Counted from the stretch's first letter, positions 8,998-29,813 are shown. The stretch: 40,000 bases of DNA from Pseudomonas sp. DNDY-54 (GCF_019880365.1 NZ_CP082271.1:3446083-3486082); one strand, 5' to 3'. Notes: a model not told the origin generated them from the letters alone. Program-made: numbers and translations.

Positions 8998-9020
8998 ACC
9001 GAATGCCTGATTTTGACCGC

Positions 9021-9047: not shown

Positions 9048-9067
9048 GTCCTGTCTGGAGTAATCAC

Positions 9068-9517: not shown

Positions 9518-9538
9518 TCACAGCGAATCGAAGAACGG

Positions 9539-10976: not shown

Positions 10977-11073
10977 CCCACGCCTTCCACCCCACGCCCC
11001 CAGCCATCGCCCATCGCCTGGCTGCGCTCAGAACCTCGACGACGTATCATGCCGGGCTGCTCTGGAGCCCCTC

Positions 11074-12456
11074 ATGTCTCGGCTATTGACCGCCTGGCAG
11101 CACGTCCCGACCCATAAACGGGTATGGGCGCTGGCTGCACCGATGATCCTGTCCAACCTGTCCGTGCCGCTGGTGGCGCTGGTTGATAGCGCGGTGATCG
11201 GCCATCTACCCCATGCGCATCAGCTGGCGTCGGTGGCCGTGGGCGGCAGCCTGTATACCTTGCTGGTCTGGGTCATGGGTTTTCTGCGCATGGGCACCAC
11301 CGGTTTCGCCGCTCAGGCTGCCGGGCGCGAAGACGGTGGTGCGCTACGCCAGGTATTGTTGCAGGGGCTGCTGCTGGCGCTGGGATTCGCTCTGCTGTTG
11401 AGCGTCACGGCGCAACCACTCAAGGGCTTTGCGTTGCAATTGATGCAACCTTCAGCCGAACTGGACAGCCTCACGCAAGCGTACTTCCACACGCGTCTGT
11501 TCGGCCTCCCCGCCGCATTGGCCAGCCTGGCGCTGATCGGCTGGTTCCTCGGCACCCAGAACGCCCGGGCCCCGCTGGCCATTCTGCTGACCACCAATCT
11601 GATCAACGTCGCCCTGGACCTGTGGTTCGTCATCGGCCTGGAATGGGGCGTGGCCGGAGCCGCACGCGCCTCGGTGATTGCCGAATGGAGCGGCGTGCTG
11701 GTCGGCTTGGCACTGACTCGCGGTGCCTTGCTGCGTTATCCCGGCCGGTTGAACGGCCAGGCCATGCGCCGTTGGGCCAGCTGGAAACCACTGATGTCGG
11801 TCAATCGCGATATCTTCCTGCGCTCGCTGGCGCTGCAACTGGTGTTCTTTTTAGTGACCGTACAAGGCACACGCCTCGGCGATGCGACGGTCGCCGCCAA
11901 TGCGCTGCTGCTCAACGGCCTGATGCTCACCGCCCATGCACTGGACGGCCTGGCCCATGCAGTGGAAGCGCTGAGCGGCCATGCCATTGGCGCGCAGAAC
12001 CGCACCGAGTTGCGCCGGATCCTCACCGTCGCCGGCGGCTGGTCCTTACTGGCGAGCCTGGCGTTCGGGCTGTTTTTCCTGCTCGGTGGCGAGCTGTTCA
12101 TCAGCCTGCAGACCGATATCCCGTCGGTTCGCGACACCGCCCTCACCTATTTGCCCTACCTCGCGGCGCTGCCGCTTGTTGCAGTCTGGAGTTATTTGCT
12201 CGATGGCCTGTTCATCGGCGCTACCCGCGCGCGGGAAATGCGAAACGCCATGCTGCTTGCCGTGTTGATTTCGCTACCATTGGGCTGGCTGTTGCGCGGG
12301 ATGGGCAATCATGGATTGTGGTTGGCCTTTCTCGCCTTCATGCTCCTGCGGGGCGTCTGCCTGGGCAGCATCGCCCGGAGACTGCAACGCGAGAAGCGAT
12401 GGTTCGCATCGAGCCATACGGCACCCAGCCATGAGCAAGATGCTGCTGCAACCTAA
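11074..12456 (+). CDS. dinF: MATE-family efflux transporter, DinF subfamily
   Basis: 460 aa with about 12 TM segments. The N-terminus ...ALAAPMILSNLSVPLVALVDSAVIGHL resembles E. coli DinF. I see no CTGT-N8-ACAG LexA box upstream. Confidence 0.7.
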   Translation: MSRLLTAWQHVPTHKRVWALAAPMILSNLSVPLVALVDSAVIGHLPHAHQLASVAVGGSLYTLLVWVMGFLRMGTTGFAAQAAGREDGGALRQVLLQGLLLALGFALLLSVTAQPLKGFALQLMQPSAELDSLTQAYFHTRLFGLPAALASLALIGWFLGTQNARAPLAILLTTNLINVALDLWFVIGLEWGVAGAARASVIAEWSGVLVGLALTRGALLRYPGRLNGQAMRRWASWKPLMSVNRDIFLRSLALQLVFFLVTVQGTRLGDATVAANALLLNGLMLTAHALDGLAHAVEALSGHAIGAQNRTELRRILTVAGGWSLLASLAFGLFFLLGGELFISLQTDIPSVRDTALTYLPYLAALPLVAVWSYLLDGLFIGATRAREMRNAMLLAVLISLPLGWLLRGMGNHGLWLAFLAFMLLRGVCLGSIARRLQREKRWFASSHTAPSHEQDAAAT

Positions 12457-12473
12457 CCTAAGGATCATGAAAA

Positions 12474-12932
12474 ATGGCCTATGCCGTCGCCGCCTACCTG
12501 CACTTCGTGGCGATCTTTTTGCTGTTTTCCCTGCTGGTGCTCGAACATCAACTGTTTCGTCTGCCGCTGAACTTCAAGCGGGCACGTAGCCTGTTCCGGG
12601 TCGATCTGGCCTTCGGCATCGCTGCCGGCTTGGTGCTCATCACCGGCGCGGCGCGCGCCATGCGCTACGGCAAAGGCCTGGATTACTACCTGAACAACAG
12701 CTTTTTCCACGCCAAGGTCGGGTTGTTCGTAGTTGTCGCGCTGATGTCGATCTACCCCACCGTCACCTTTCTCAAATGGCGCCCGGCGCTAAAGGCGGGC
12801 GAGGTCCCCACTATCAGTCCGGCCCATGCACGCGGCGTCAAGCTGGTCATTCGGATAGAGCTGCTCGCACTGCTGATGCTTCCCCTGCTGGCCGCACTGA
12901 TGGCGCGAGGACTCGGCGTGATTCCGCAGTGA
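12474..12932 (+). CDS. DUF2214-family membrane protein
   Basis: 152 aa with 4 hydrophobic segments. It begins MAYAVAAYLHFVAIFLLF. Family assignment is from memory. Confidence 0.5.
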   Translation: MAYAVAAYLHFVAIFLLFSLLVLEHQLFRLPLNFKRARSLFRVDLAFGIAAGLVLITGAARAMRYGKGLDYYLNNSFFHAKVGLFVVVALMSIYPTVTFLKWRPALKAGEVPTISPAHARGVKLVIRIELLALLMLPLLAALMARGLGVIPQ

Positions 12933-13092
12933 CGCGAGATCGCATTTGACTGCAACGCCGGTCGGCCCGGCAGCGCAGGCGACTCGGCCGTGCACCCTGT
13001 ATGTAGAAGGGAAACGATCACAACCAACGGCAGTCGACTAACAGGACCGCGGCGTACCCGCAAACCGTCCGCCTAGCACCGGAGCCGAGCCT

Positions 13093-17321: not shown

Positions 17322-17574
17322 GCCGGTTATCCTGCGGGCGCCTGGACTTACCCAGCCGCCCGCGTGCGCTGCGGGCGAAATGCGCTGAGGCGGCCCGAGC
17401 AGCTCCCGGCGGTCACCCCGGGAAGCGCATCAACCAATTTTCCCGATGCCGCTGAATCGCTTCACCCCGCGCCCTGCACCTCGGGGCCCGCTTTAGGGCC
17501 GCGGTATGGTTGAACGCAATTACTTCGATTAACGGTGATCCGCGGGCACGACAGACCTGACCGCAACGACAGCC

Positions 17575-18540
17575 CTACATCCGATCCAGCGGGCTTAGCA
17601 CCGCAAGACCGCCCCGATTGAGCACATGGGTGTAGATCATCGTTGTCTTCACATCCGCATGCCCAAGCAGTTCCTGGACAGTGCGAATGTCCTGCCCGCT
17701 TTCCAACAAATGAGTGGCGAAACTGTGCCGCAGGGTATGAGGCGTCGCCAACTTTGCGAGCCCTGACGCCTTAACCGCTCGCTTGAACGCGCGTTGCACG
17801 CGTTTCTCGTCCAGATGATGCCGACGCACCGACCCGCTGCGCGGGTCGACTGACAAGCCCGCCGCCGGAAAGACATATTGCCAAGCCCACTCAAACGGTG
17901 CGCCGGGATACTTCCGCGCCAAGGCATCCGGCAGATAGACGTCGCCCCTTCCCTCGGCCAGCTCGAACTGATGAATGGCTCGCACCCGCGCGATATGTTG
18001 CCTGAGCGGTAATGCCAAGCTTGTCGGCATTACCGTGACGCGATCCTTCTGACCCTTGCCGTCGCGGATGATGATTTCCTTTCGCGAGAAATCCACATCC
18101 TTGACCCTAAGCCGTACGCCCTCCATCAAACGAAGACCCCCGCCATACAAAAGTCGCGCGATGAGCCCGACGTCTCCATCAAGCTGTCCGAGGATCTGCT
18201 GTACCTCGCTAATGGAGAGCACAACCGGCAACCGAGCCGGTTTCTTGGCACGGACTACCTCGCCCAACCAGGGTAAATCCTGCTTGAGCACCTGTTTATA
18301 AAGAAACAATAACGCGGCCAGTGCCTGATTCTGCGTGGAGGCCGACACATCACGGCGAACCGCCAGATCAGAAAGAAACGCTTCGACGTCCGGAGCGCCC
18401 ATTTCCATTGGGTGGCGATAATTGTGAAACCGTACGTAGCGCTTGATCCATTCGCAATAGACGCGCTCAGTTCTGATCGAGTAGTGTTTCAGCCTGATCT
18501 GGTCGCGGACTTGATCGAGTAAACGCGGCTTTCCATCCAT
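17575..18540 (-). CDS. intI: Integron integrase (tyrosine recombinase, IntI family), apparently intact
   Basis: ATG at 18540 (cat at 18538-18540) with a GGGAG SD 8 nt upstream. The longer 18630 start in the ORF track would run through attI-side motifs. The catalytic set is visible: GLRLME (Arg), [12 protein letters not shown] (His-x-x-Arg) and TTMIYTHV (Tyr). The IntI-specific insertion [21 protein letters not shown]...RRHHL is present. Confidence 0.9.
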
Positions 18541-18584
18541 GGTGTATAACTCCCTTATACATTCATCCTTCCTCGGAACCGCCC

Positions 18585-18613
18585 AGACTAGACAAGGAGG
18601 TCGAAGATGACAA
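18585..18613 (-). promoter_or_regulatory. Candidate intI promoter (TTGTCA-17 bp-TAGTCT on the minus strand)
   Basis: Read on the reverse strand, the -35 TTGTCA is the complement of 18608-18613 and the -10 TAGTCT is the complement of 18585-18590. The -10 is weak. This is sequence inspection only. Confidence 0.2.
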
Positions 18614-18616
18614 GGA

Positions 18617-18678
18617 ATGTTATACACCACGCCCGTTCGGCGTCTTATACACCACTTGGTGTCTAATTATAGTTAGGC
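18617..18678 (+). other. attI recombination site with its crossover core
   Basis: Direct repeats TTATACACCAC occur at 18620-18630 and 18645-18655. An inverted copy, GGTGTCTAA, lies at 18658-18666, followed by the core GTTAGGC at 18672-18678. The first cassette's attC inverse core GCCTAAC (18912-18918) is complementary to this core. Confidence 0.8.
18646..18673 (+). promoter_or_regulatory. Candidate cassette promoter (TATACA-16 bp-TATAGT) overlapping attI
   Basis: -35-like TATACA at 18646-18651 and -10-like TATAGT at 18668-18673, oriented into the array. By-eye match only. Confidence 0.2.
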
Positions 18679-18911
18679 GTCATTTTCGTTTAAGGCTCGT
18701 GCATACATGGAAGTTTGTTTCGCCGCCGCCCGTTACTCTTTCAATACGCATCCGTCGCATTGCCCGCTAGCGCGTCGTTTGCGCGCTTTGGCTCCGAGTC
18801 CGGCAACAAGGAGCATGCAGCGGTGTGAATCAGTCAGCACGTATTGGTTTGAACGTTCGAATCCACTCAGCCATTCGCGGTATCAGCCAGCGAGGCCCGC
18901 TATGCTCCGCT

Positions 18912-18987
18912 GCCTAACAAGCGGTTCAAGCCGCTCACTTCGTTCGCTGGGACTGGCTAAAGCCAGCCCCTTAACCAAACGTTAGGT
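18912..18987 (+). repeat. attC 1 (76 bp, diverged member of the array's main attC family)
   Basis: GCCTAAC ... GTTAGGT. The central stem gactggctaaagccagcc differs from the family's gacgggctaaagcccgcc by a compensatory pair (G>T with C>A). Confidence 0.85.
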
Positions 18988-18992
18988 ATCAA

Positions 18993-19226
18993 ATGCTAAA
19001 CCGCTACCCTGACCAAGCCCGCACCCGTAGAGGTTACGCATTAACGGGAGCGTTGTTTTTGATATTTGGCCTATTTATGCTTTTTATCGGTTCAGCAGCA
19101 GGAACTCTTGTCGGTGTGGTCATGGCCTGTACATTACTTATTCCAGCATGCCTATTTAGCCACTCTCGCTTCAAAAAATATAATAGTGCCATTTCATGGG
19201 TAGCCAACTTTGGTAACCTGTCGTGA
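18993..19226 (+). CDS. Cassette 2 (18982-19297): hypothetical small membrane protein, 2 TM
   Basis: 77 aa. The ATG is 11 nt after the crossover. Hydrophobic segments are ALTGALFLIFGLFMLFIGSAAG and LVGVVMACTLLIPACLF. The stop lies just before attC 2. Confidence 0.6.
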   Translation: MLNRYPDQARTRRGYALTGALFLIFGLFMLFIGSAAGTLVGVVMACTLLIPACLFSHSRFKKYNSAISWVANFGNLS

Positions 19227-19227
19227 A

Positions 19228-19303
19228 ACCTAACTAGTGGTTCAAGTCGTTCGCTTCGCTCACTGGGACGGGCTAAAGCCCGCCCCTTAACCAAACGTTA
19301 GGC
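19228..19303 (+). repeat. attC 2 (76 bp, main family)
   Basis: ACCTAAC...ggttcaagtcgttcgcttcgctcactgggacgggctaaagcccgccccttaaccaaacGTTAGGC. The inverse core complements the cassette start TTAGGT. Confidence 0.9.
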
Positions 19304-19305
19304 GA

Positions 19306-19725
19306 GTGAGTCTTTTTATCGGAGTATGGAGTAGTACCGATATGGCGTATTTTTTTGACATGCTTTTCGGATTAATTTTTGTCTTCGTCGCTTCTCTAGG
19401 CTTGATTATCACACCACTGAAGAAATATGTTTCGTTAAAAATTGTCGTAGTAGCAATATTCATGTCACCACTCGTTTTGCTAGTTACGTCTTTATGCGTC
19501 TCTCAGGTTGACGCGGTGGGCGTTGAGGGATTCTTGGCAGGTGACTTTCTTTGCTCTAGTCTGCATGGCGCCAGTTCACACGGATGCGGTATAGGCGGTG
19601 CTCTTTTTGATGCGTTTCTAGTAGCAGGCCTGTTCAGCCTAGTTAGCTTCGGGTTGTTTCCTATTGCTGCCTTTGTGGTATCCCTTTTACTTCTTTCAAT
19701 ATTGAAGAAACTACTTTGTCACTAG
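19306..19725 (+). CDS. Cassette 3 (19298-19888): hypothetical polytopic membrane protein
   Basis: 139 aa from the GTG at 19306; the ATG at 19342 is an alternative start. About 4 hydrophobic segments with a Cys/Gly/His-containing loop (CSSLHGASSHGCGIGG). Confidence 0.6.
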   Translation: MSLFIGVWSSTDMAYFFDMLFGLIFVFVASLGLIITPLKKYVSLKIVVVAIFMSPLVLLVTSLCVSQVDAVGVEGFLAGDFLCSSLHGASSHGCGIGGALFDAFLVAGLFSLVSFGLFPIAAFVVSLLLLSILKKLLCH

Positions 19726-19782
19726 GTACGGTCGCCCGCTCGCTGTTTCCGGCCGCCGCTAGCGCGCCATGAAGTCCGCATG

Positions 19783-19894
19783 GCCTAACCGTTCGTTCAA
19801 GCCGAACCTGCTTCGTTGCAGCACCATCGTGGCAGAAAAAACTTGCCACGCCGTTGCTTCCACTACGCAGTTCGGCTTAACTCAGGCGTTAGGG
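19783..19894 (+). repeat. attC 3 (112 bp, heterologous type)
   Basis: GCCTAAC cgttcgttcaagccgaac ... gttcggcttaactcaggc GTTAGGG, with a long imperfect central palindrome. Its sequence is unrelated to the main family. Confidence 0.85.
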
Positions 19895-19901
19895 TAAGAA
19901 C

Positions 19902-20363
19902 ATGCTCCTTCAGCTAAACGCTAATAAAGACAACCACAGGAAGGTTTTAGCTGAGTTGATAAAACGCTCTGAAATATCAGTACTGTGCTCTGGATGGCTG
20001 AAACAGGCGGGGCTTAAACACTTACTCCCCGCCATTGATCTCGCCTTAAAAAATAAAAGCCAAATCACTATTTACTCAAATAAAAAACATACTGATAGCG
20101 AAGCAATAGAATCTCTAAAATCAAGAGAGTCAATTCTCCACATAGTAGTAGACGACAGCGCTAAATATCTTCATTCAAAAATATACTACTTCGAGAACGC
20201 TGGTGAATATAAAGCAATCATAGGTTCTGCGAACATCACGAACGGCGGATTAACCTCTAACGAAGAGCTTTCAGTAAGCCTGGCAGGAACTATTGGTGAC
20301 AGTCAGAACAATCAAATAAAAAAATATCTAGCTCGGCTTAAAACCGTGGGCCACCCAAACTAG
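19902..20363 (+). CDS. Cassette 4 (19889-20423): PLD-superfamily (single HKD motif) nuclease-like protein
   Basis: 153 aa. The relaxed HKD motif is LHSKIYYFENAGEYKAIIGSANITNGG...NEE (H91, K93, E98, G108-S109-x-N111; nt about 20172-20234). The TAG stop lies inside attC 4. Confidence 0.65.
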   Translation: MLLQLNANKDNHRKVLAELIKRSEISVLCSGWLKQAGLKHLLPAIDLALKNKSQITIYSNKKHTDSEAIESLKSRESILHIVVDDSAKYLHSKIYYFENAGEYKAIIGSANITNGGLTSNEELSVSLAGTIGDSQNNQIKKYLARLKTVGHPN

Positions 20364-20429
20364 TGGTTCAAACCGTTCGCTGCGCTCACTGGGACGGGCT
20401 AAAGCCCGCCCCTTAACCAAACGTTATGT
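20354..20429 (+). repeat. attC 4 (76 bp, main family)
   Basis: CCCAAAC...ggttcaaaccgttcgctgcgctcactgggacgggctaaagcccgccccttaaccaaacGTTATGT. There is one mismatch to the complement of the cassette start TTAGGG. Confidence 0.9.
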
Positions 20430-20451
20430 GGCAGCTCATCTGAGAATGTGA

Positions 20452-20787
20452 ATGACTGATAAATTCGATGAAACTAGAGCAAAGTTTCTGAGCACAGATT
20501 ATCTGCTATGGCGTAATGTGCTTTCTTGCGTTGTTCTGGTTGTGCTATCTACAGGCGCTGTATCGTCTTGGTGGTACGCCTATTACACGACTCCTGGGGC
20601 CGAGTGCCACAGAGGTTTCTTTTACTTTTCGGTTCTGTGGCTTGTTGTTCAATGGGTAGTCATTGGTTATCTATATCGGTATCGGAATGTCCCTGCATTT
20701 GCTCGGGGTGCGATAGAAATGCTAATTCTGGTCGCTAATATTTGGTTTGTGCTTTTCATTTTTTCGCTTGAGCCGTGTGTCTCGTGA
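20452..20787 (+). CDS. Cassette 5 (20424-20872): hypothetical membrane protein, about 3 TM, Trp/Tyr-rich
   Basis: 111 aa. Hydrophobic segments are VLSCVVLVVLSTGAV, FFYFSVLWLVVQWVVIGYLY and IEMLILVANIWFVLFIF. Confidence 0.6.
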   Translation: MTDKFDETRAKFLSTDYLLWRNVLSCVVLVVLSTGAVSSWWYAYYTTPGAECHRGFFYFSVLWLVVQWVVIGYLYRYRNVPAFARGAIEMLILVANIWFVLFIFSLEPCVS

Positions 20788-20794
20788 CGCAAGC

Positions 20795-20878
20795 ACATAA
20801 CCAGTGCAGGCACGGCGACGCCCTTTTCATTGCGCCTTCGGCTCCATTCCAAGGGCGCGCATGCTGCAAGCGTTATGT
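20795..20878 (+). repeat. attC 5 (84 bp, heterologous type)
   Basis: ACATAAC cagtgcagg ... gctgcaagc GTTATGT. The inverse core exactly complements the cassette start TTATGT. Its sequence is unrelated to the main family. Confidence 0.8.
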
Positions 20879-20887
20879 ACCAAAGCC

Positions 20888-21325
20888 ATGAATATCATTG
20901 AAGCAATAAAAATGTCTTGGGGCTGGGTCGGTATTGAGCCAGAGGAAATCATTGGTGAAAACGATTTCGGAAATCTGATCATCAAGGACAATCGCGGCAG
21001 GTATTGGCGCCTATGCCCTGAAGATGTTTATTGTCAAGTAATCGCCGAAAATAGAAACGAGCTTGATGCGCTCTCGACAAACCAAGATTTCTTAGCTGAT
21101 TGGTACATGGCTGCGTTGACTGAACAAGCTAAAGAGAGACTTGGCTCATTGCTGCCCGGTCACAAATATCACTTGGTCATACCGAGCGGGCTTGGTGGCG
21201 AGTATACATTATCAAATATTCGTACAGTTCCACAGATCGAGCAAATACACTTCTCTGGAGACATCGGAAAGCAAATATCCGATCTCCCTGATGGCGCTAA
21301 AGTAAAACTCAAGGTTATCGAGTAA
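20888..21325 (+). CDS. Cassette 6 (20873-21399): DUF1851 / T6SS-immunity Tdi1 C-terminal-like protein (tentative)
   Basis: The ATG at 20888 is the first start inside the cassette; the ORF-track start at 20804 lies in the previous cassette/attC. 145 aa. The blocks FGNLIIKDNRGRYWRLCPEDV and LPGHKYHLVIPSGLGGEYTLSNIRTV...IHF resemble my recollection of the DUF1851 signature (..cy.f.P.l.LGG....n...v). This has not been checked against a profile. Confidence 0.45.
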   Translation: MNIIEAIKMSWGWVGIEPEEIIGENDFGNLIIKDNRGRYWRLCPEDVYCQVIAENRNELDALSTNQDFLADWYMAALTEQAKERLGSLLPGHKYHLVIPSGLGGEYTLSNIRTVPQIEQIHFSGDIGKQISDLPDGAKVKLKVIE

Positions 21326-21329
21326 AGGC

Positions 21330-21405
21330 ACATAACAAGTGGTTCAAATCGTTCGCTTCGCTCACTGGGACGGGCTAAAGCCCGCCCCTTAACCATACGT
21401 TAGAA
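21330..21405 (+). repeat. attC 6 (76 bp, main family)
   Basis: ACATAAC aagtggttcaaatcgttcgcttcgctcactgggacgggctaaagcccgccccttaaccatacGTTAGAA. Confidence 0.9.
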
Positions 21406-21410
21406 GTCAC

Positions 21411-21869
21411 ATGGATATCGTAGCCCCAATCATCGCAATTCTTTTTACATGGCGCTTTTTACTCAGCCTAGCCATCTCAGTAGTGCTTGCATTTTTGTTA
21501 GCTCAACACTTTGGGCTAGTAGCTAGTTTTTTTACAATCTGTATTGGCGTGGGTTTTGGCGCTATTTGGCAGGGTCGTTGGTTATCTGGCCTAGCTTTGT
21601 TCGAGCCTGCCCAAGCTCAGTTAGTATCTAAGCCCATTGCATTTATTGGTTTCGCTTTTATTGGGGCCATATGGGGTGGTCTTGTAGGCCAGCTATTCGG
21701 CTCTACGCTAATTGGGGCATTAGTTTTGCTGGCTGGCGTTACACTAACAGGCGCTTGGTTTACCCTAGTTCTTAAACTACACGCACAGCTTTTTAAACTC
21801 ATATTAGTCGCTATATCTTTGCTCATCGGATTTTTTAGCATTTACGTATACGGCTTACGTCAGGTATAA
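21411..21869 (+). CDS. Cassette 7 (21400-21945): hypothetical polytopic membrane protein, Gly-rich helices
   Basis: 152 aa. The ATG is 11 nt after the crossover. About 4-5 TM segments with GxxxG-like runs (IGVGFGAIWQG, FIGFAFIGAIWGGLVGQLFG). Confidence 0.6.
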   Translation: MDIVAPIIAILFTWRFLLSLAISVVLAFLLAQHFGLVASFFTICIGVGFGAIWQGRWLSGLALFEPAQAQLVSKPIAFIGFAFIGAIWGGLVGQLFGSTLIGALVLLAGVTLTGAWFTLVLKLHAQLFKLILVAISLLIGFFSIYVYGLRQV

Positions 21870-21875
21870 GGCGCC

Positions 21876-21951
21876 TTCTAACAAGTCGCTCAAATCGTTC
21901 GCTTCGCTCACTGGGACGGGCTAAAGCCCGCCCCTTAACCAAACGTTATGC
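21876..21951 (+). repeat. attC 7 (76 bp, main family)
   Basis: TTCTAAC aagtcgctcaaatcgttcgcttcgctcactgggacgggctaaagcccgccccttaaccaaacGTTATGC. The inverse core complements the cassette start TTAGAA. Confidence 0.9.
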
Positions 21952-21972
21952 GTAAACAAGGAAGGAGTCAGC

Positions 21973-22287
21973 ATGGCAAATAGTTGGAACATTCCAAGCT
22001 GGCTCGAAAAAGAAGTCCGCGCGAGGGACAAAAAAAGCGTTTATTGCGGCATAGCATTCACAACAGCCAAGATCTCAAAGAAAACTTGCGCGATCTGGGA
22101 GCACATTTTAAATGACGCGAAAATCATTACTCTCGAAAACATTACTCTATGCTGCTGCTCATGCAACGCTAGTAAAGGACAAAAACAGCTTTCTGCATGG
22201 CTTCTTTCAAAATACTGTGTTGACCGCCAAATCACGCGAGAGTCAGTGGCCCCAATAATCAAGCAGGCATTAGCCAACGGGCTTTAG
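21973..22287 (+). CDS. Cassette 8 (21946-22362): small HNH-motif endonuclease-like protein
   Basis: 104 aa with a GGAAGGAG SD upstream. HNH-like layout: VYCG (C25) ... WEHILND (H44) ... ENITLCCCSCNASKG (N56, C61-x-x-C64, N65). The first zinc-knuckle CxxC appears incomplete (SVYC). Confidence 0.6.
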   Translation: MANSWNIPSWLEKEVRARDKKSVYCGIAFTTAKISKKTCAIWEHILNDAKIITLENITLCCCSCNASKGQKQLSAWLLSKYCVDRQITRESVAPIIKQALANGL

Positions 22288-22292
22288 CAACC

Positions 22293-22368
22293 GCATAACA
22301 ATTGGTTCAAACCGTTCGCTTCGCTCACTGGGACGGGCTAAAGCCCGCCCCTTAACCAACCGTTAGAT
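22293..22368 (+). repeat. attC 8 (76 bp, main family)
   Basis: GCATAAC aattggttcaaaccgttcgcttcgctcactgggacgggctaaagcccgccccttaaccaaccGTTAGAT. The inverse core complements the cassette start TTATGC. Confidence 0.9.
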
Positions 22369-22771
22369 GCTTATACCTATGAATACTTACTCTGCCCATT
22401 GGCTAGCTCGAATGATTGAACGCCTGCCTTCCGACGAGCCGGTTTCACTCGGCACTCAAGGCTATGCCCATTACACCACGCAGCGTGATCATTGGTTGGG
22501 CTGGCTAGATCCAAACAGAAAAGCAGTGAAGTATGCGAGGAGCAGCGGCCCTGGACGGGATGCGAGATATGCTTACAACCACATAATGGAGCCCAAAATG
22601 CTGCTGTGGCTAATCTCTGCTGCTGGTTTCCCTAATAGCGAACTTGAAAGGGCTAGAGAAGAAGCACAAGGAAAGAAAGCGTTCGCGAGCAAGTGTGCTG
22701 CTATTAGGCGGGTTGTATCGTGGGAAAAAATGGCAGCTGCGCTAACTGCAGGCCCAAACCACGATAGCTAA
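22367..22771 (+). CDS. Cassette 9 (22363-22837): hypothetical soluble protein, no recognised domain
   Basis: 134 aa. The ATG at 22367 overlaps the attC 8 core (GTTAGATG); the ATG at 22379 is an alternative. The composition is non-membrane and Trp/Arg-containing (HWLARMIERL, HWLGWLDPN). Confidence 0.55.
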   Translation: MLIPMNTYSAHWLARMIERLPSDEPVSLGTQGYAHYTTQRDHWLGWLDPNRKAVKYARSSGPGRDARYAYNHIMEPKMLLWLISAAGFPNSELERAREEAQGKKAFASKCAAIRRVVSWEKMAAALTAGPNHDS

Positions 22772-22843
22772 CAAATGGTTCTTAAATCGTTCGCCTAGCT
22801 CACTGGGACGGGCTAACCCCCGCCCCCAAACCAAACGTTAGGC
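22766..22843 (+). repeat. attC 9 (78 bp, main family, slightly diverged)
   Basis: AGCTAAC aaatggttcttaaatcgttcgcctagctcactgggacgggctaacccccgcccccaaaccaaacGTTAGGC. Confidence 0.85.
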
Positions 22844-22886
22844 AAAAATCAAATCCAACGCGTAGCTGCTCACCTGTGGTTTAGGA

Positions 22887-23138
22887 GTGCCGTTTTCTAT
22901 CTTCTTTGGCGCGCAAGTAGGTGCTTATGTCGTGGGCTTTATCTGGTCAGCAAAAGGCGTTTCTTTATTAGCTTTTCATATCGTTCCCTGCAGTGGTTTT
23001 TTCCCAACAAATGGTTCAAAGCGTTCGCTCCGCTTAATCGATACCGGTTCATGCCCGCCCACTAACCAAACGTTTAGACGGTTCTGCAGCTCGCTCCGCC
23101 GGGTGTCGATATGGATCGTGTTCGTTCGACTAACTTGA
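22887..23138 (+). pseudogene. Cassette 10 (22838-23072): short decayed cassette; the ORF runs through the attC and past the array end
   Basis: The GTG-started 83-aa frame has no spacing to its putative SD. It crosses attC 10 and the last crossover, so it is most likely a remnant or not a gene. Confidence 0.25.
23002..23078 (+). repeat. attC 10 (77 bp, degenerate terminal copy of the main family)
   Basis: TCCCAAC aaatggttcaaagcgttcgctccgcttaatcgataccggttcatgcccgcccactaaccaaacGTTTAGA. The flanks are conserved, but the central stem is disrupted and the core is GTTTAGA instead of GTTAGR. Confidence 0.65.
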
Positions 23139-23185
23139 TCAAGCGGCAGACAGCCCCTCGCTGAGTCAGCAAGAAGGAGAACACG

Positions 23186-23623
23186 ATGCCAGCGTTAATC
23201 GTCCGTAAATCTATCTGTATAAGCGCGCCACCGTCGAAGGTCTGGAACACCCTTACGTCGCCGAGCGCGATAAGGCGCTGGATGCTGGTGACGCCGGTCT
23301 TAGAGAGTGATGGCCCGCTACAGTTGGGAAATAGGGTCCGATGGAATGACGAACATGGCCGAACCTATCTCACCGGTACGGTCGTCACGCTTGATCCACT
23401 GCAGAAACTCGTGCTCGCGCTGGAAGATATCAGTTGGCCACGAAAGGCAAGGCCGGGCGAGGTGACATACGGGCTGACGCTTTCGGAATCGGACGGCGGG
23501 TCTCGTCTGGAGTTTGTGCTCGGTGACCTGGCGATCGATCCGGATGGCCAGCAGTGGTTCGAGGCGTATAGCGCCAGCGAAGAGTTGGCAATCATCAAAG
23601 CCATGGCGGAGGACCGACCGTGA
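23186..23623 (+). CDS. SRPBCC-superfamily (AHSA1/START-like) protein
   Basis: 145 aa with an AAGGAG SD. The N-terminal I.A....VW..LT.P..I..W pattern is typical of the Aha1/SRPBCC family. Confidence 0.6.
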   Translation: MPALIVRKSICISAPPSKVWNTLTSPSAIRRWMLVTPVLESDGPLQLGNRVRWNDEHGRTYLTGTVVTLDPLQKLVLALEDISWPRKARPGEVTYGLTLSESDGGSRLEFVLGDLAIDPDGQQWFEAYSASEELAIIKAMAEDRP

Positions 23624-24021
23624 GTCGTATCGACACTCGCTGTTTATGCGGAGCCGTTCACCTACGGATCCATCATCAGCCGGTGGCTCAGTTTTACTGC
23701 CACTGTGACGATTGCCAGGCCGTGCATGGTGCGTCGTATGTGGGCGTGGCTGTCTTTCCCTCGGACGCCGTCGAGGTCATTCGAGGCGCGCCGATCTCGT
23801 GGACGTACAAGACACTGCCCCGACAACGCTGCCGGACATGTGGGACGCTTCTGATCGCGCGCGTGCCAGATTCAGCGCTAACAGGCATCAAGGCAAACCT
23901 GTTGCCGCCAGGCACGTTCACGCCGGCGTTTCACATCCATTGTCAGTTCGCGGTGCTTCCGGTTGTGGATGATCTACCGCACTACGCGTCCCTGCCGGGC
24001 GTCTTCGGGGGTACTTTATGA
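23620..24021 (+). CDS. GFA/CENP-V family (glutathione-dependent formaldehyde-activating-like) zinc protein
   Basis: 133 aa. The GTG start overlaps the upstream stop (GTGA). Cys pattern: CLCG...CHCDDC...C..CG. Confidence 0.65.
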   Translation: MSRIDTRCLCGAVHLRIHHQPVAQFYCHCDDCQAVHGASYVGVAVFPSDAVEVIRGAPISWTYKTLPRQRCRTCGTLLIARVPDSALTGIKANLLPPGTFTPAFHIHCQFAVLPVVDDLPHYASLPGVFGGTL

Positions 24022-24136
24022 CGTGGTCGCCTGGTGATGGGAAACGTCGTAAAGCATCCAGTAGGCAATGCGTGAACGTCCGCATGTGAGGCCGAGCGCA
24101 ACCGGTTAAAACTTCAGGAAAACCTTCTGGGCAGCC

Positions 24137-24514
24137 ATGACAAAAACAACGCCACGGGTATTCCCGATCCTCTGCTTTGTCGTGATCACAATGGCGGTAG
24201 CGATCCCCCTGATTGATGTTGGGTATTGCCGCTACGTCTTGGCCGGCGCGGTTGAGTCCGATGACGCGCTACGGTACCGGGACGGCATTGCATTCAGTCG
24301 AAGCGACGATACGCCGTTCACCGGTACAGCCTATCGTTCTGTGTGCGGCGGCGACTGCGGATTTGCGGGTTGTTCAGCACTTCACTGGTATGCGGTATTC
24401 GAAAATGGAAAGCGGACGACGGGCTTCCTACCGAAGTCGGGAGGGGCGAATGATTATTTCAACCTATCGCTCTTTGGCGAGTACACACCTGTTAGATATG
24501 ACGACACGTTTTAA
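24137..24514 (+). CDS. Hypothetical N-terminally anchored protein
   Basis: 125 aa. It has a TM anchor (VFPILCFVVITMAVAIPLI) and a Cys-rich middle (CGGDCGFAGC). No domain recognised. Confidence 0.4.
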   Translation: MTKTTPRVFPILCFVVITMAVAIPLIDVGYCRYVLAGAVESDDALRYRDGIAFSRSDDTPFTGTAYRSVCGGDCGFAGCSALHWYAVFENGKRTTGFLPKSGGANDYFNLSLFGEYTPVRYDDTF

Positions 24515-24586
24515 TTCTTAGCCGTTTCCTCCTCGCGCTTTCGATCTGTGCGCTAGACGGGCGCGGCTAGACAAGGATGTCACCCC

Positions 24587-25042
24587 ATGCTGCTGGCACT
24601 ACGCACCGATGCAATCATCACAGCCATAGCCATTGCTGCGGCTCTCACCGTCACCTTCATGAAAGGCGATGTGCTTTTTATCGGACAGTGGTATTACGCG
24701 TCCGTCTTTCTTGCGATTTTTGTTCTTTCTGCAGCGATAAAAACGAAGCCGTTATTTATTTCGGGTGCCGTGTTTGCTGCAGCCGTCACCTTCGTCGTTT
24801 ACTTAAGGGCTAATTGGGCGCCGTCAACGGCAGAGGGCCTGCTTGCCCTAGGCCACCTGTTTTCATTGCCTGGCGCAGCTATTGGCTTATTCATAACGGG
24901 GATTATCAGCCGACATACAAAAAGCCGTAGGCCGGCTCTCGCGTTCACAACTGGTGTATTAGGTTTCGCCACAGGCTTTTTAGTGAATCAGGTAGCGATA
25001 TGCGGCTCTGTTATGGCCTGTGGTGTGCTCTTGGGTAGCTAA
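24587..25042 (+). CDS. Hypothetical polytopic membrane protein
   Basis: 151 aa with about 4-5 hydrophobic segments. GC content is lower than the core genome. Confidence 0.5.
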   Translation: MLLALRTDAIITAIAIAAALTVTFMKGDVLFIGQWYYASVFLAIFVLSAAIKTKPLFISGAVFAAAVTFVVYLRANWAPSTAEGLLALGHLFSLPGAAIGLFITGIISRHTKSRRPALAFTTGVLGFATGFLVNQVAICGSVMACGVLLGS

Positions 25043-25340
25043 TGAATACCGCGCACTTGGGCGTGCTAAGAACCGCTCCCTTTGCTTAGTTCGTAAAGAA
25101 GCCATACCGCTCGCAACTTTCGCTTCCCTAATGCACTTCAGTCCCCCCAACCCAAAGTCGCCAGCCCGCGCCAGCGTTATGGGCAACCATGGCGTCGCCT
25201 CGGGTCGTTCGACTCGTCGATCAGAGTGAACTAACCCCTCAGCGGCACGATCCCCTTTTAAGCACAGTCAGTGCGATCCCGGTAGCCAGTGCATTCGCGC
25301 CGCGCATCAAGCCAGGGTCGCCAGCGATGAGGACGCCTTC

Positions 25341-25790
25341 GTGACCGTTATCACCCATAGCACTCAGCAGACGACACACAGCATTTCCCGCCACGTTCCG
25401 AACCCGCTGCATGCGACGTTGCTAGCCGGGACAGTCCCGCTGTTTCTCGGCGCGCTGTTGACGGACATTACTTACTTCCGCAGCTACCACATTCAGTGGA
25501 GTGACTTTTCGTCCTGGCTGATTGCCGGAGGGTTGGTCTTCTGCGGGCTGGCGATCGTCTTTGCGCTCGTCAACCTGATCCGCGCGCGGCGCAAAACGGG
25601 ACGGCCGCTGGTGTATTTCCTGGTGCTGGTCGCGACCTGGGTGCTCGGCTTCATCAATGCCCTGCAGCACGCCAAGGATGCCTGGGCGGTGATGCCAACT
25701 GGCTTGGTGCTCTCGGTGATCGTAACGGTCTTGGCCTGTGCGGCCACGTGGATTGGCTTGAGCAACCTGCGTAACGGAGGTGAGGCATGA
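25341..25790 (+). CDS. DUF2231-family membrane protein
   Basis: 149 aa from a GTG start. HATLLAGTVPLFLGALLTD plus 3 more TM segments. Its stop overlaps the start of the downstream dehydrogenase (ATGA at 25787-25790). Confidence 0.55.
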   Translation: MTVITHSTQQTTHSISRHVPNPLHATLLAGTVPLFLGALLTDITYFRSYHIQWSDFSSWLIAGGLVFCGLAIVFALVNLIRARRKTGRPLVYFLVLVATWVLGFINALQHAKDAWAVMPTGLVLSVIVTVLACAATWIGLSNLRNGGEA

Positions 25791-27082
25791 AGCATTCAAG
25801 CGCGCTCTCCGTCCTGGCAATGTCCGTATTTCTGGCGGCTTGCGGGGCTGACGATCAGGATTCCGCGCAGCTGTATGGCGCCACCCCAAAGCTGCCCGAA
25901 CCGGAACGTGGGTTGCTGCCCAGCATGAAAATCGCCGAGCCGTCGCCCTGGGGTGATGCGATACCGACGGTACCGGACAATTTCAGCGTCACGGCCATTG
26001 CCACGGACCTGAAGGTTCCGCGTCAGACGCTGGTGTTGCCCAACGGTGACATCCTCGTGGCTGAGGGCAAGGGTGGCAACGCACCCAAACTCAAGCCCAA
26101 GGACGTGATCGCCGGGTACATCAAGGCGCAGGGCAATACGTCGGTGAAAGGAGGCGATCGCCTGACCTTGCTGAGGGATGCCGATGGTGACGGCACCTAC
26201 GAGCTGCAGACGGTGTTCGCCGACGATCTCAACGCCCCTTACGGCTTGGCTTTCCATGACGGCAACCTCTACGTCGCTAATCAGGACTCAGTGGTGCGCT
26301 TCGCGTATGAAGAGGGCCAGACTGAGGCCAGCGGGGAGCCGACCAAGGTCACCGACCTGCCATCAGAGATCAATCATCACTGGACCAAGGCGATGACCAT
26401 CAGCCCGGATGGCCAGTATTTGTATGTGGGCATCGGCTCCAACAGCAACATCACCGAGCGGGGGATGGATGCGGAAGTCGACCGCGCAATGGTTTGGCAA
26501 ATCGATGCTGAAACGGGTGCCCACAAACCTTACGCAACCGGTTTACGCAACCCGACCGCCCTGGCGATACAGCCGGGTTCAGGCGAGTTGTGGGCGGTGG
26601 TGAACGAGCGGGACGAGCTGGGTGAAAACCTGGTTCCGGACTATCTGACGTCCGTGAAGGAAGGCGGCTTCTATGGCTGGCCGTACAGCTACTGGGGCCA
26701 GAACGTCGATGACCGGGTGCGGCCACAGGATCCGGACAAGGTCGCCGCAGCGATCACACCGGACTATGCGCTGGGCTCGCACGTTGCCGCCCTTGGGGTG
26801 GACTTCTCCATCCCCGAGCTGGGCGAGCAGTTTGCCAACGGCGCATTCGTTGGTGAGCACGGCAGCTGGAACCGTGAGGATCCGTCGGGCTACAAGGTGG
26901 TCTTCGTGCCGTTCAGCAATGGCCGCCCTTCAGGCGAACCGGTTGATTTCGTGACGGGCTTTCGTACCGATGAGGGCAAGACTCGCGGCCGACCTGTTGG
27001 CGTGACCGTCGACCCGAAAGGTGCGGTGATCGTGGCGGATGACCTTGCCAACGTGGTGTGGCGAGTAACGCGCAACCAGTGA
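25787..27082 (+). CDS. PQQ-dependent sugar (sorbosone/glucose) dehydrogenase-family beta-propeller lipoprotein
   Basis: 431 aa with the lipobox LAACG. Family blocks are present: P.G.ILVAE, APYGLAF, GLRNPTALA, ERDELG..LVPDYLTSV..GGFYGWPY. Confidence 0.8.
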   Translation: MKHSSALSVLAMSVFLAACGADDQDSAQLYGATPKLPEPERGLLPSMKIAEPSPWGDAIPTVPDNFSVTAIATDLKVPRQTLVLPNGDILVAEGKGGNAPKLKPKDVIAGYIKAQGNTSVKGGDRLTLLRDADGDGTYELQTVFADDLNAPYGLAFHDGNLYVANQDSVVRFAYEEGQTEASGEPTKVTDLPSEINHHWTKAMTISPDGQYLYVGIGSNSNITERGMDAEVDRAMVWQIDAETGAHKPYATGLRNPTALAIQPGSGELWAVVNERDELGENLVPDYLTSVKEGGFYGWPYSYWGQNVDDRVRPQDPDKVAAAITPDYALGSHVAALGVDFSIPELGEQFANGAFVGEHGSWNREDPSGYKVVFVPFSNGRPSGEPVDFVTGFRTDEGKTRGRPVGVTVDPKGAVIVADDLANVVWRVTRNQ

Positions 27083-27206
27083 CAAGCAGCCGGTAATTGC
27101 ACTTCTGAGAGGTGCGAGCCGGCGCTCCGCGCGCTACCGATAACGCCCGATCAGCCCCCTGAGGTGCGGTGGGCGGCCGCTAACACTAAGGGCATAGGAA
27201 TTACGA

Positions 27207-28126
27207 ATGACGCAGCACTCGCCGCCGAACGGGATAGACCTGGCAGGCAGGACGGCGGGTCTGGGTACGCTGTTCGTAGTGCTCGCGGCCTTATGCTGGG
27301 GGCTGTCAGTCGGGATCGGTGGCGTTCTCACTGCAGAGGGTTGGAGCCCGGTTGTGGTCTCGCTCTACCGGGGCGTGATCGGGCTGGTTTTCGTCCTTGT
27401 GTGGCTCGCGTTGCGCCCGGGCGGAAGCGGGTTGGCGAACAGCTCGATGTGGTTCTGGTCGGTCGTGGCCGGGGTGGGCGTAGCTGGCAACTTCTCTTTC
27501 TATTTCCTGAGCATTGCAGAGGGCAGCGTTGCGGTTGCGGCAACCCTGATGTACTCCGCGCCGGTGTTCGTCTATCTCGTTTCCTTCGCGTTCAGGCTTG
27601 AAAACCCACCCTGTTCAAGTGGGCAGCGATCGCCATGGTGATGCTTGGCGTCCTGCTGCTTACCGGCATCTATGACATAGAAGCGGGTGACATCACCCCC
27701 GTAGCCGCCGGCGCAGGTCTGCTCTCCGGCGTGTCCTACGCAGTGTTTATTTTTGGCTTTAAGTATGCAGCGCCCCACGGCAGCCCTCAGGCAATCCTCG
27801 TGATCGCGTTCGCCGTACTCGTTGGCATACTTGGCTGGTTCGCCGATGCGGACCAGGCAGTGGAAGTGTTGACCGCCCCGAGTTGGCCGCTGTTCGTGGT
27901 ATTGGGGGTATTGGGCGCCGGGCTATCGTTCATTCTGTATATCGTCGGGCTCAACCATACCGCGCCGGCGGTCGCGTCTATTGTGGCCATGATCGAGCCG
28001 GTAACCGCTTCGCTCTTCGGCGTTATGGTGCTGAACGAACGCCTGGCTGCGCTACAGATTCTGGGCATGGGCCTGATTTTGGTCACGGTTACTGCTTTGG
28101 GTGTCCGTTCAAGAAAACAAAACTAG
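27207..28126 (+). pseudogene. EamA/DMT-family transporter interrupted by a -1 frameshift in an A-run
   Basis: Two adjacent ORFs (27207-27641 and 27635-28126) are the two EamA halves. Reading ttc agg ctt gaa aa(a) ccc acc ctg ttc aag tgg gca gcg atc gcc atg gtg would give a continuous ...FRLEKPTLFKWAAIAMVMLGV.... The observed run is aaaa at 27601-27604. Confidence 0.6.
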
Positions 28127-28204
28127 ACGTATTGCGACCGCGCTCATGGGAACACCCTGCCGCCCTATCAGTCATTGACAGAACGCCACCGTGAGCCACA
28201 AAGC

Positions 28205-28606
28205 ATGCTTCGATCCATTCATCACGCCGCCATCATTTGTTCGGACTATGCCGTCTCGAAACGCTTCTACACCGAGACGCTCGGTCTGGCTGTGATCACC
28301 GAGCATTACCGTGAAGCGCGCCGCTCCTACAAGCTTGACCTTGCATTGCCTGACGGCGGCCAGATCGAGCTTTTTTCGTTTCCTGAGGCACCCACAAGAC
28401 CGTCCCGGCCGGAGGCGCAAGGCTTGCGGCATCTGGCATTCGCGGTGGATGACGTCGAGGCAAGCAAGGCGTGGCTGGAAACCCAGGGCGTCAAGGTCGA
28501 ACCCATCCGGGTGGACGAATACACGGGGCGTCGATTCACCTTTTTCCCAGACCCGGACAACCTGCCGCTGGAGTTATACGAAGCGGCACCGGGAGCGCTG
28601 CCCTGA
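28205..28606 (+). CDS. VOC-family (glyoxalase I-like, YaeR-type) metalloprotein
   Basis: ATG at 28205 in the 28175-28606 frame. The sequence MLRSIHHAAIICSDYAVSKRFYTETLGL...ELFSF...GLRHLAF.VDD...RFTFF.DPD..PLELYE follows the VOC layout. Confidence 0.7.
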   Translation: MLRSIHHAAIICSDYAVSKRFYTETLGLAVITEHYREARRSYKLDLALPDGGQIELFSFPEAPTRPSRPEAQGLRHLAFAVDDVEASKAWLETQGVKVEPIRVDEYTGRRFTFFPDPDNLPLELYEAAPGALP

Positions 28607-28682
28607 CGCGTCGCGTAACAAATCCAGGCTCAACTGAGCGCGCCATGCGCAGTAACGTTGAGCTCAAACTTTCGACGAGAGG

Positions 28683-29813
28683 ATGGTCATGAAGCGTGTT
28701 CCCCTGCAGGTCGCCGGTACGATTGCCCTTGGTTTCGCCTCGCTCGCTGCCACCGCAGCCGAGGCGATCAAGCAGGACCAATGGCCATTCAGCGCCACGC
28801 CGCGCGCCACCTTCGCCGAACCCTGGGCCATGACCTTTCTCCCGGACGGCACCGCCCTCGTCACCGAAAAACGCGGCGCGCTCAAGCATGTCGATGTCAA
28901 AACCGGCGAGACGCATGACATCAAGGGCGTCCCTGATGTCGCCTACGGCGGCCAGGGTGGGTTCGGCGACGTGATCATTCATCCCGACTTCGCACAGAAC
29001 AAACGTATCTACCTCAGCTACGCCGAGAAGGGAGACGGCGGCGACCGAGGCGCAGCCGTGGCTCGCGCAACCCTGGCGCTAGGCCCTGACGGCGGCTCGT
29101 TGTCGGATGTGCAGGTGATCTGGCGACAAACGCCCAAGGTTTCGGGTGGCGGGCACTATGGCCACCGCCTGGCATTCGGCCCGGACGGCAAGCTCTGGAT
29201 TTCTTCCGGAGACCGCCAGAAGTTCACGCCTGCGCAGGACATGAAAAGCACCATGGGCAAGATCCTGCGGCTGAACGACGACGGCAGCGTGCCGGATGAC
29301 AACCCCTTTGCCGACAAGGGCGGCGTGACGGCGCAGATCTGGTCGCTGGGCCATCGCAACCCGCTTGGCATCGCGTTCGACGCGCAGGGCCGTCTGTGGG
29401 AACAGGAAATGGGCCCGGAAGGTGGCGACGAACTCAACCTGATCGAAAAGGGTGGCAACTATGGCTACCCGGAGGTCTCGAACGGCGACCATTACGGCGG
29501 TCGACCGATTCCCGATCACGACACACGCCCGGAATTCATCGCACCCAAAATCACCTGGACGCCGGTGATCTCCCCTGCCGGCCTGATGATCTACAGCGGT
29601 GATCAGTTTGCCGACTGGAAAGGCAACGCCTTCGTCGGCGGCCTTTCCGCCAGAGGGCTGGTGCGCATTACGCTCAATGGCGAAGAAGCCAGCGAAGCCG
29701 CCCGCTACGACATGGGTGCGCGCATCCGCGAAGTCGAACAGGGTCCGGACGGCAGCATCTGGGTGCTTGAGGATGGCGATGACGGCCGCTTGTTGCAATT
29801 GCAGCCGAAGTAA
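28683..29813 (+). CDS. Soluble PQQ-dependent aldose sugar dehydrogenase (YliI-like)
   Basis: 376 aa with a signal peptide. Family blocks are present: [58 protein letters not shown] and GP.GGDELN.I..G.NYGYP. Confidence 0.8.

Follow-up and report, generated by a model that had tools for sequence, protein, structure and literature searches.

The stretch of DNA analysed here, hereafter the window, comprises 40,000 nucleotides of the 4.41 Mb chromosome of Pseudomonas sp. DNDY-54 (NZ_CP082271.1:3446083-3486082). It contains a chromosomal integron, namely an integrase gene, intI, on the minus strand (17575-18540), an adjoining attI recombination site and ten cassettes on the plus strand, each closed by an attC site, followed by a foreign tail that carries no attC. 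An earlier note, made from the sequence alone, had proposed a complete chromosomal integron with an intact integrase; the integrase, attI, the structure of the attC sites, the permuted cassette borders and cassette turnover each pass the independent tests described below.

Integrase, attI and attC anatomy

The intI gene encodes a protein of 321 residues identical to RefSeq WP_222909388.1, annotated as 'integron integrase' of Pseudomonas sp. DNDY-54. Its start is the ATG at 18540, as in the RefSeq call; the GTG at 18630 that appears in the open reading frame (ORF) listing marks an upstream extension. The protein scores 496.7 bits against the NCBIfam model TIGR02249 'integron integrase' (cutoff 265), contains two Pfam integrase domains and aligns over its full length with the Vibrio cholerae integrase VchIntIA (IntI4/VchIntIA, PDB 2A3V), residues 8-321 pairing with residues 6-320 (E = 1e-88). 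The segment specific to IntI proteins is spanned in that alignment with one single-residue gap only, whereas Xer recombinases align to IntI in two separate stretches that skip it. The catalytic residues R-K-H-R-H-Y are all identical to the aligned positions of VchIntIA, including R135, K160, HxxR, the later histidine and the YTH tyrosine, and they lie in the contexts GLRLME (R), GKGQKDR (K), an HxxR motif (H and R), LGH (H) and IYTHV (Y). Model score and alignment thus bear out an integrase with every catalytic residue and with the IntI-specific insertion, as had been read from the sequence, and the alignment offers no sign that this domain is lacking. Equivalents of W219, P232, H240 and H241 of VchIntIA are retained as well; these residues, together with W157, reportedly contact the extrahelical bases in the VchIntIA structure. 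Among species representatives, the nearest IntI proteins come from Pseudomonas sp. NPDC047963 and Stutzerimonas stutzeri SD25545 (both 88% identical) and from S. chloritidismutans (84%).

Upstream of intI, the intI-attI intergenic region (18541-18678, plus strand) ends in the attI core and is marked by four copies of TTATACACCA, two in direct orientation on the plus strand (18620 and 18645) and two inverted on the minus strand (18540 and 18657). The motif occurs five times in the 40-kb window against an expectation of 0.4, and four of these five occurrences fall here, in a layout that resembles the direct repeats and simple site of attI1. The core GTTAGGC, correctly assigned to attI before, occupies 18672-18678, with the crossover after G18672. 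The putative attI therefore has the expected anatomy: it adjoins the 5' end of intI, ends in GTTRRRY and is joined to the first cassette at G|TT. When positions 18530-18700 are aligned with eight other Pseudomonas-group integrons, the sequences are conserved as far as GTTAG and unrelated directly after it; blastn homology to five comparison loci (L001, L002 and L005-L007) likewise stops at 18676. A candidate cassette promoter, Pc, with the form TATACA-16-TATAGT (18646-18673, plus strand; 9 of 12 matches in a consensus scan), abuts the attI core. It is conserved across species, but the same bases are also part of attI.

One of the inverted TTATACACCA copies overlaps the intI start codon (18540-18566, minus strand), where it forms, together with TGTATAA, a 7-bp inverted repeat around the Shine-Dalgarno sequence GGGAG. 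The repeat is kept in most relatives but shows no covariation, and its consensus fold reaches just -2.7 kcal/mol; binding of IntI or autoregulation is a conceivable role, and so is a weak hairpin in the mRNA.

Downstream of attI, the ten attC sites all share one orientation and close ten plus-strand units, in agreement with the earlier note. From attC1 to attC10 they occupy 18912-18987, 19228-19303, 19783-19894, 20354-20429, 20795-20878, 21330-21405, 21876-21951, 22293-22368, 22766-22843 and 23002-23079. Eight of them (attC1, 2, 4, 6, 7, 8, 9 and 10) belong to one family of 76-78 nt with a mean column identity of 86%. In bottom-strand DNA folds of the family sites the R boxes pair, the L boxes pair as GGTT-AA with TT(G)AACC, leaving one unpaired G that can be read from the sequence, and a strong internal hairpin, GGGGCGGGC-TTTA-GCCCGTCCC, forms; in the attC1 hairpin, a G-to-T change is offset by a compensatory C-to-A change.

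The family structure was evaluated with a covariance model, R1, built from the eight family attCs of the window itself. Within the 40-kb window R1 returns these eight sites at 69-105 bits (among them attC1 94.1, attC2 104.6, attC6 100.5, attC7 94.1, attC8 98.9 and attC10 69), and every other match, comprising attC5, partial matches to the family hairpin and a few scattered sites, at 8-14 bits with E >= 0.25. Elsewhere, R1 identifies 63 sites (E < 1e-8) in arrays beside intI at 12 other loci from Stutzerimonas, Ectopseudomonas, Phytopseudomonas and other Pseudomonas, and every one is oriented relative to intI as expected. Across the combined 71 family sites (8 + 63), 93.5% of cells are paired, seven pairs contain double changes (51 cells) and covariation reaches 0.120, compared with 0.062 after shuffling (reached in 0 of 500 cases) and at most 0.042 after sliding. 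The two outermost R-box pairs are paired in only ~60% of the 71 sites, as expected given that the outer R' bases come from the adjoining cassette.

The two remaining intact sites are of other types. The 112-nt attC3 folds on the bottom strand with -29.6 kcal/mol (z = -4.7) and matches a site of a Nevskiaceae integron array at 75% identity (111 nt); its L boxes, GTTCAAGCCGA...CGGCTTAAC, presumably resemble those of the aadA attC. The 84-nt attC5 folds with -21.1 kcal/mol (z = -2.6) and resembles a site in the P. mangrovi array. Both stand directly after an ORF, and in both the complementarity to their own cassette described below is exact. attC10 is degenerate: its central hairpin is broken, its R' reads GTTTAGAC and it folds no better than shuffled sequences do (z = -0.75). 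An Rfam gathering search of the window returns no match, the IntegronFinder attC model not being part of Rfam. A regular-expression and folding scan (RYYYAAC...GTTRRRY with an energy filter) recovered some true sites among ~100 matches per strand and was abandoned as too unspecific.

The cassette borders provide a further test. When G and the six bases that open a cassette are reverse-complemented, the result in seven cassettes is exactly the inverse core of the cassette's own attC; cassettes 4 and 9 each deviate at one of the seven positions and cassette 10 at two, which reproduces the internal check made in the earlier note. For cassettes 1-9 this own pairing yields two mismatches in total, compared with 17 when each attC inverse core is paired with its own downstream core and with 14.3 on average upon random reassignment of pairs (permutation p = 1e-5). 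Such own-cassette complementarity is the signature of circular cassettes opened at G|TT. Composition also separates the array, with a GC content of 0.473, from its flanks, with 0.63, and the GC content at third codon positions (GC3) is 0.38-0.49 in the cassette ORFs compared with 0.75-0.85 in the flanking core genes. The cassettes are indeed far more AT-rich than their surroundings, as had been claimed, and only the example given needs correction: 20041-20100 contains 17 G+C, not 16.

Cassette contents and recurrence in other arrays

Eight of the ten cassettes contain a credible ORF, in every case on the plus strand. Cassette 1 (18673-18981; 309 bp, GC 0.56) does not, its only ORF being a low-complexity frame of 92 aa with GC3 0.54 that runs through the attC, and neither does cassette 10 (22838-23072; 235 bp). 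Four cassettes encode small hydrophobic proteins: a 77-aa protein with a transmembrane (TM)-like segment at residues 13-58 in cassette 2 (18982-19297; ORF 18993-19226), a 139-aa membrane protein in cassette 3 (19298-19888; ORF 19306-19725), a 111-aa membrane protein in cassette 5 (20424-20872; ORF 20452-20787) and a 152-aa polytopic membrane protein with several TM-like segments and a GRAVY of 1.49 in cassette 7 (21400-21945; ORF 21411-21869). None of these four has a Pfam match.

Three other cassette proteins can be assigned to families. Cassette 4 (19889-20423) encodes a 153-aa single-domain PLD/HKD nuclease (19902-20363) that matches Pfam RE_NgoFVII (4e-8) and PLDc_2 (4e-7) and the PADLOC model DrmC (6e-10). 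Cassette 6 (20873-21399) encodes a 145-aa Tdi1-like protein (20888-21325) that matches Pfam T6SS_Tdi1_C, the C-terminal domain of type VI secretion system (T6SS) immunity proteins, at 1.8e-14 and 53.8 bits (cutoff 27.4), and its RefSeq name agrees. Cassette 8 (21946-22362) encodes a 104-aa HNH-type nuclease-like protein (21973-22287), with matches to PHROG HNH endonuclease families (best 3e-5) and a weak PADLOC match to PtuB (0.0034).

The product of cassette 9 (22363-22837), a protein of ~130 aa (22379-22771), belongs to a widespread uncharacterised family with at least 202 homologues of ~125 aa, none of which has a Pfam domain. Translation probably does not begin at the first ATG of the cassette (22367), which falls within R' of attC8. 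Alignment of the family reveals 23 invariant positions, including a run within YNHIMEPKMLLWL in which Y, N, I, E, P, K and two L are invariant. An AlphaFold2 (AF2) model of high confidence (pLDDT 84.8) is all-alpha, and it has no Foldseek match in the PDB or in a viral structure set. Searches of PHROGs, PADLOC and NCBIfam return no family match for cassettes 2, 3, 5, 7 and 9, nor for two ORFs of 125 and 151 aa in the distal tail. The description of ten cassettes of almost entirely unknown function is therefore fair as regards biological role, with the qualifications that a biochemistry can be predicted at family level for three of the eight ORFs and that two cassettes have no credible ORF at all. 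No cassette matches an NCBIfam antimicrobial resistance (AMR) model, in keeping with the earlier statement that none is a classical resistance gene.

Integron cassettes are known to encode phage defence (Kieffer et al., bioRxiv 10.1101/2024.07.02.601719), and sedentary integrons have been described as defence biobanks (PMC12614218). Judged by sequence, the array appears similar in kind, with putative compact single-gene nucleases in cassettes 4 (PLD/HKD) and 8 (HNH-type) and an apparently orphan Tdi1-like immunity gene in cassette 6. It differs in that none of its cassettes has a convincing match to a validated system: a defence screen of the cassettes with PADLOC, a check proposed earlier, gives as its best result the match of cassette 4 to DrmC, one component of DISARM, followed by the weak match of cassette 8 to PtuB. 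There is some small chance that at least one among the 153-aa PLD nuclease, the 104-aa HNH protein and the cassette 9 family represents a new minimal anti-phage or anti-competitor conflict gene with an undescribed mechanism. These three, the Tdi1-like orphan immunity gene and the four small membrane proteins are candidates for functional screens.

Comparison with other genomes reveals that the cassettes turn over. Related genomes have intI and attI in common with the window and none of its cassettes, and a between-species tblastn search of the cassette ORFs against 80 intI loci finds no match. A relative that is 96.9% identical to window positions 23881-26042 (L094) agrees with the window in its distal tail and right flank but carries two cassettes absent from the window. 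The region is therefore not fixed core sequence in syntenic genomes, and the cross-genome comparison that the earlier note had proposed comes out in favour of turnover.

Individual cassettes of the window are found in other contexts. Four metagenome contigs contain cassette 5 at 99.8-100% identity; for three (L088, L089 and L091) homology is confined to 20419/20422-20875/20878, i.e. to the cassette borders, two of these (L088 and L089) have different attCs upstream of cassette 5 and different cassettes downstream, and the fourth contig carries cassettes 5 and 6 together. Cassette 4 is 99.4% identical in another contig (L087), where it follows a different cassette with a family-type attC (96 bits), and proteins from P. 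borbori and from two further Pseudomonas strains fall into its 90% cluster. Cassettes 3 and 4 are jointly 99.9% identical in a further contig (L086; Logan ERR14790980), behind unrelated upstream DNA. Finally, a homologue of cassette 9 (81% protein identity) is the attC-flanked terminal cassette in Pseudomonas sp. B392_1p. Altogether, cassettes 3, 4, 5 and 9 have counterparts in other arrays or contexts that are 88-100% identical in DNA and match no further than the G|TT borders; by this comparison the cassettes behave as independently mobile units.

In the contig that carries cassettes 3 and 4, the pair adjoins, at G|TTAGGC, an attI-like simple site, GTCTAATCACTGTTAGGC, with more GTTAG repeats ahead of it. 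The upstream 1-1600 of that contig contain no intI and encode, on the same strand, the C-terminal portion of the R subunit of a type I restriction system (T1RH-like_C, 9e-42).

The attC-less distal tail

Foreign sequence does not end with the last attC. The earlier note closed the element at 23078; the foreign region, however, continues for ~2.1 kb, homology to related genomes resuming only at ~25210 and host-like GC3 with the ORF at 25341. The intervening tail (23073-25209) has a GC content of 0.563 and holds four cassette-sized ORFs co-oriented with the cassettes on the plus strand, with GC3 values of 0.52-0.68 (0.75-0.85 in core genes). These encode an SRPBCC/AHSA1 protein (23186-23623), a GFA protein (23620-24021), a 125-aa protein (24137-24514) and a 151-aa membrane protein (24587-25042). 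Neither R1 nor an inverted-repeat scan nor folding reveals an attC in the tail, and no homologue of the tail is present in L001-L003.

The SRPBCC and GFA genes offer the clearest view of its origin. They form a unit that is 81.6% identical at the nucleotide level over 940 bp to a unit in a betaproteobacterial metagenome-assembled genome (L092; BOKW01000005), and a weaker similarity to that locus extends upstream as far as the G|TT of attC10. A short attC-like site, GCCCAAC...GTTAAGC, stands behind the unit in L092 and folds into a structure with a bulged L stem (z = -3.15), whereas the window retains at the same position sequence remnants only, which do not fold (z = +0.87). The next unit of the tail starts with TTAAAA at 24106, and at the stop codon of its 125-aa ORF stands TTTTAAT, where the expected inverse core is TTTTAAC, followed by an imperfect palindrome and then by GCTAGAC, one change from GTTAGAC. 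As a remnant of cassette borders around the 125-aa ORF this pattern is suggestive only. Two relatives, L001 and L003, also have an attC-less distal stretch of intermediate GC content, and comparison with L094 indicates that the tail is conserved between strains while the upstream cassettes differ.

We consider it probable that the tail consists of old cassettes that, once their attCs had been lost, could no longer move, and whose composition is approaching that of the host. Possible but less probable is that the tail is a small genomic islet of unrelated origin, placed next to the array by chance. An islet would account for the failure of the covariance model, the inverted-repeat scan and folding to find any attC, and for a tail GC content that is nearer to that of the host than the cassette GC content is; the two distal units, moreover, are tied to cassettes by a 6/7 core match and an imperfect palindrome alone, and it counts against decayed cassettes that a cassette origin is well supported for the SRPBCC+GFA unit and for no other part of the tail. 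What an islet does not readily accommodate is the cassette size and shared orientation of all four ORFs, the beginning of the L092 similarity at the G|TT of attC10, the structured attC-like site after the L092 unit with its sequence remnants in the window, and the similar stretches at the distal array ends of L001 and L003. If the tail is read as decayed cassettes, it records how cassettes become fixed chromosomal genes once their attC decays, and the series from a broken attC through sequence remnants to no trace illustrates the loss of cassette mobility.

Two observations on the comparison loci may be added. In L094 (733-815) homology to the window starts inside GFA, at 23881, SRPBCC and most of GFA being missing; a short unrelated stretch, which contains TTCTTAGCCGTT, also present at window 24516-24527, joins the last attC to the truncated GFA. 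In L092 the SRPBCC+GFA unit heads a series of co-oriented small ORFs (8001-13000) with a GC content of 0.58-0.64 compared with ~0.70 in the flanks, and no intI was called within 8 kb; the segment may be an attC cluster lacking an integrase.

Chromosomal setting and interpretation

DNDY-54 is referred to, in work cited in PMC11869652, as a denitrifying isolate from deep-sea sediment, and signature indels place it in Stutzerimonas (PMC11855360). The integron lies between syntenic core genes with host-like GC3 (0.75-0.85). No transposase, resolvase or conjugation gene occurs within ~10 kb on either side, and the window contains no tRNA gene, hence no tRNA-linked island. A close relative (L081; 95.1% identical over 11.8 kb), in which IntI is 98.8% identical, has intI at the same junction; its contig breaks 5 nt before the attI core, and the fixed location was assessed on two relatives, this one and L094. 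Measured against the same genomes, IntI (84-88% identity) has diverged to a similar extent as the flanking core proteins (mostly 80-88%; u_168 70-88%), which fits vertical inheritance of intI.

To the right of the array stands a two-gene core block that comprises a DUF2231 protein gene (25341-25790) and a GSDH-like protein gene (25787-27082). The window (17322-17574 and 25210-28683), L001, L081 and L094 share the arrangement u_168, intI-array, two-gene block; S. stutzeri SD25545 (L002) and S. chloritidismutans (L003) have instead u_168, block, intI-array, GSDH gene. The alternative integron site contains neither a second or remnant intI nor an attC. Outside the flanking genes, the integron junctions do not resemble L002 and resemble L001 and L003 only weakly. 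With ten attC sites and at most three decayed units, the array is below the common cutoff of >19 attCs for a large sedentary array; by size alone it is a small chromosomal integron, as are other Stutzerimonas and Pseudomonas arrays. Its attCs are homogeneous and lineage-specific, the family that supplies eight of ten being found across Pseudomonas-group arrays.

We are confident that the locus is the resident, sedentary chromosomal integron of DNDY-54. In the established integron mechanism, IntI, a tyrosine recombinase, would recombine the folded bottom strand of attC with double-stranded attI, with exchange between G and TT of GTTRRRY, so that new cassettes would enter next to attI; cassettes would be read from a promoter at the intI/attI end, and recombination between two attCs would excise them as circles. 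The array would accordingly be read as nine cassettes whose attCs are structurally intact, a tenth whose attC is broken, and a 2.1-kb tail of older cassettes which, their attCs eroded, would no longer be mobile. By analogy with that mechanism, IntI may be active today, Pc may lie at the position proposed above and the cassettes may benefit the host.

Several points weigh against so straightforward a picture. IntI has an arginine (IIIRDGKG) where VchIntIA has W157 (IRIWQGKG). No LexA box (CTGT-N8-ACAG) is found in the intI-attI region, so SOS control of intI is unsupported. The Pc of P. stutzeri Q, TTGAGC-16-TCTGAT, lies inside intI (PMC8876359), and only half of it is conserved here, a -35 element TTGATC at 18511-18516 (5 of 6 matches) with no matching -10; of the two candidates, the one within attI fits the consensus better. 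The attC model, too, has its limits: the earlier expectation that a covariance model would score all ten sites is borne out for the eight family sites, and R1, built from the window's own sites, misses attC3 and gives attC5 only 13.9 bits, even though it does generalise to other genomes; for these two sites the case is made by folding, position, core sequences and homologous sites elsewhere.

Taken together with the decay of attC10 and the tail, the substituted tryptophan, the missing LexA box and the incomplete strain Q promoter could be understood if the locus were a frozen relic, its integrase or its expression defective and its array no longer turning over, and if the cassettes shared with other arrays came from other hosts or from the past. 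We regard this as improbable. The intI ORF is intact with every catalytic residue in place, a relative with 95% DNA identity has an IntI that is 98.8% identical, the structure of nine attCs is preserved, and the relative with 97% identical distal DNA carries different cassettes. Cassettes that are 99.4-100% identical in other contexts speak for very recent exchange. That the locus is instead a mobile integron, brought into the chromosome by a transposon, a plasmid or an integrative and conjugative element, is very improbable, for the shortness of the array (10-13 cassettes), its two heterologous attCs and the position of the integron on the other side of the two-gene block in S. stutzeri and S. 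chloritidismutans are outweighed by the lack of transposase, resolvase and conjugation genes, the core genes with host-like GC3 on both flanks, the eight near-identical, lineage-typical attCs, the match between IntI divergence and that of most flanking core proteins, and the presence of the integron at the same locus in a conspecific strain.

Chromosomal integrons of P. stutzeri, in strains Q and BAM17, were reportedly treated by Holmes and co-workers in 2003 and by Coleman and Holmes in 2005, the former work being said to have first described the P. stutzeri chromosomal integron and to have shown it to be active. The present locus resembles them in host group, in its divergent intI and its attI, and in a short array of cassettes of unknown function with uniform lineage-specific attCs, and its closest IntI relatives (84-88%) are those of Stutzerimonas and Pseudomonas. 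It differs from them in the promoter noted above and in cassette content, which appears to be entirely different. According to the summary in PMC8876359, the strain Q integron is able to capture and express cassettes.

Comparison with better known integrons leads to a similar placement. With the V. cholerae superintegron the locus shares an integrase alignable over its full length, with catalytic and, the arginine at W157 apart, extrahelical-base-binding residues kept, as well as a sedentary habit, homogeneous lineage-specific attCs and mostly uncharacterised small cassette genes; it differs in having ~10-13 cassettes rather than roughly 180, no recognised toxin-antitoxin cassettes and no LexA box. 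With class 1 mobile integrons it has the recombination chemistry and the GTTRRRY cores in common, and it differs from them in lacking a Tn402 or other transposon context and resistance cassettes and in being flanked by the chromosomal core. Integrons of this type have been on record for the P. stutzeri group since 2003, and RefSeq already lists the integrase under that name, so the locus is a textbook example and not a discovery; the literature that we found mentioning strain DNDY-54 does not discuss an integron. Its consequence for integron biology as such is small. Its value is that of an unusually clean worked example, with exact cassette borders, natural copies of the same cassettes in other arrays and a decaying distal end.

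Two features of the surroundings complete the description. In Pseudomonas sp. NPDC047963 (L001 10964-20027) ~9 kb separate the u_168 homologue from the 3' end of intI, which are adjacent in the window. Beyond the two-gene block, blastn finds no counterpart of window positions 27083-28683 in L001, in which the matches to the two flanks stand ~134 bp apart. Within this segment of the window an EamA/DMT transporter is split over two overlapping ORFs (27207-27641 and 27635-28126) with one EamA domain each, which may represent a frameshifted pseudogene.

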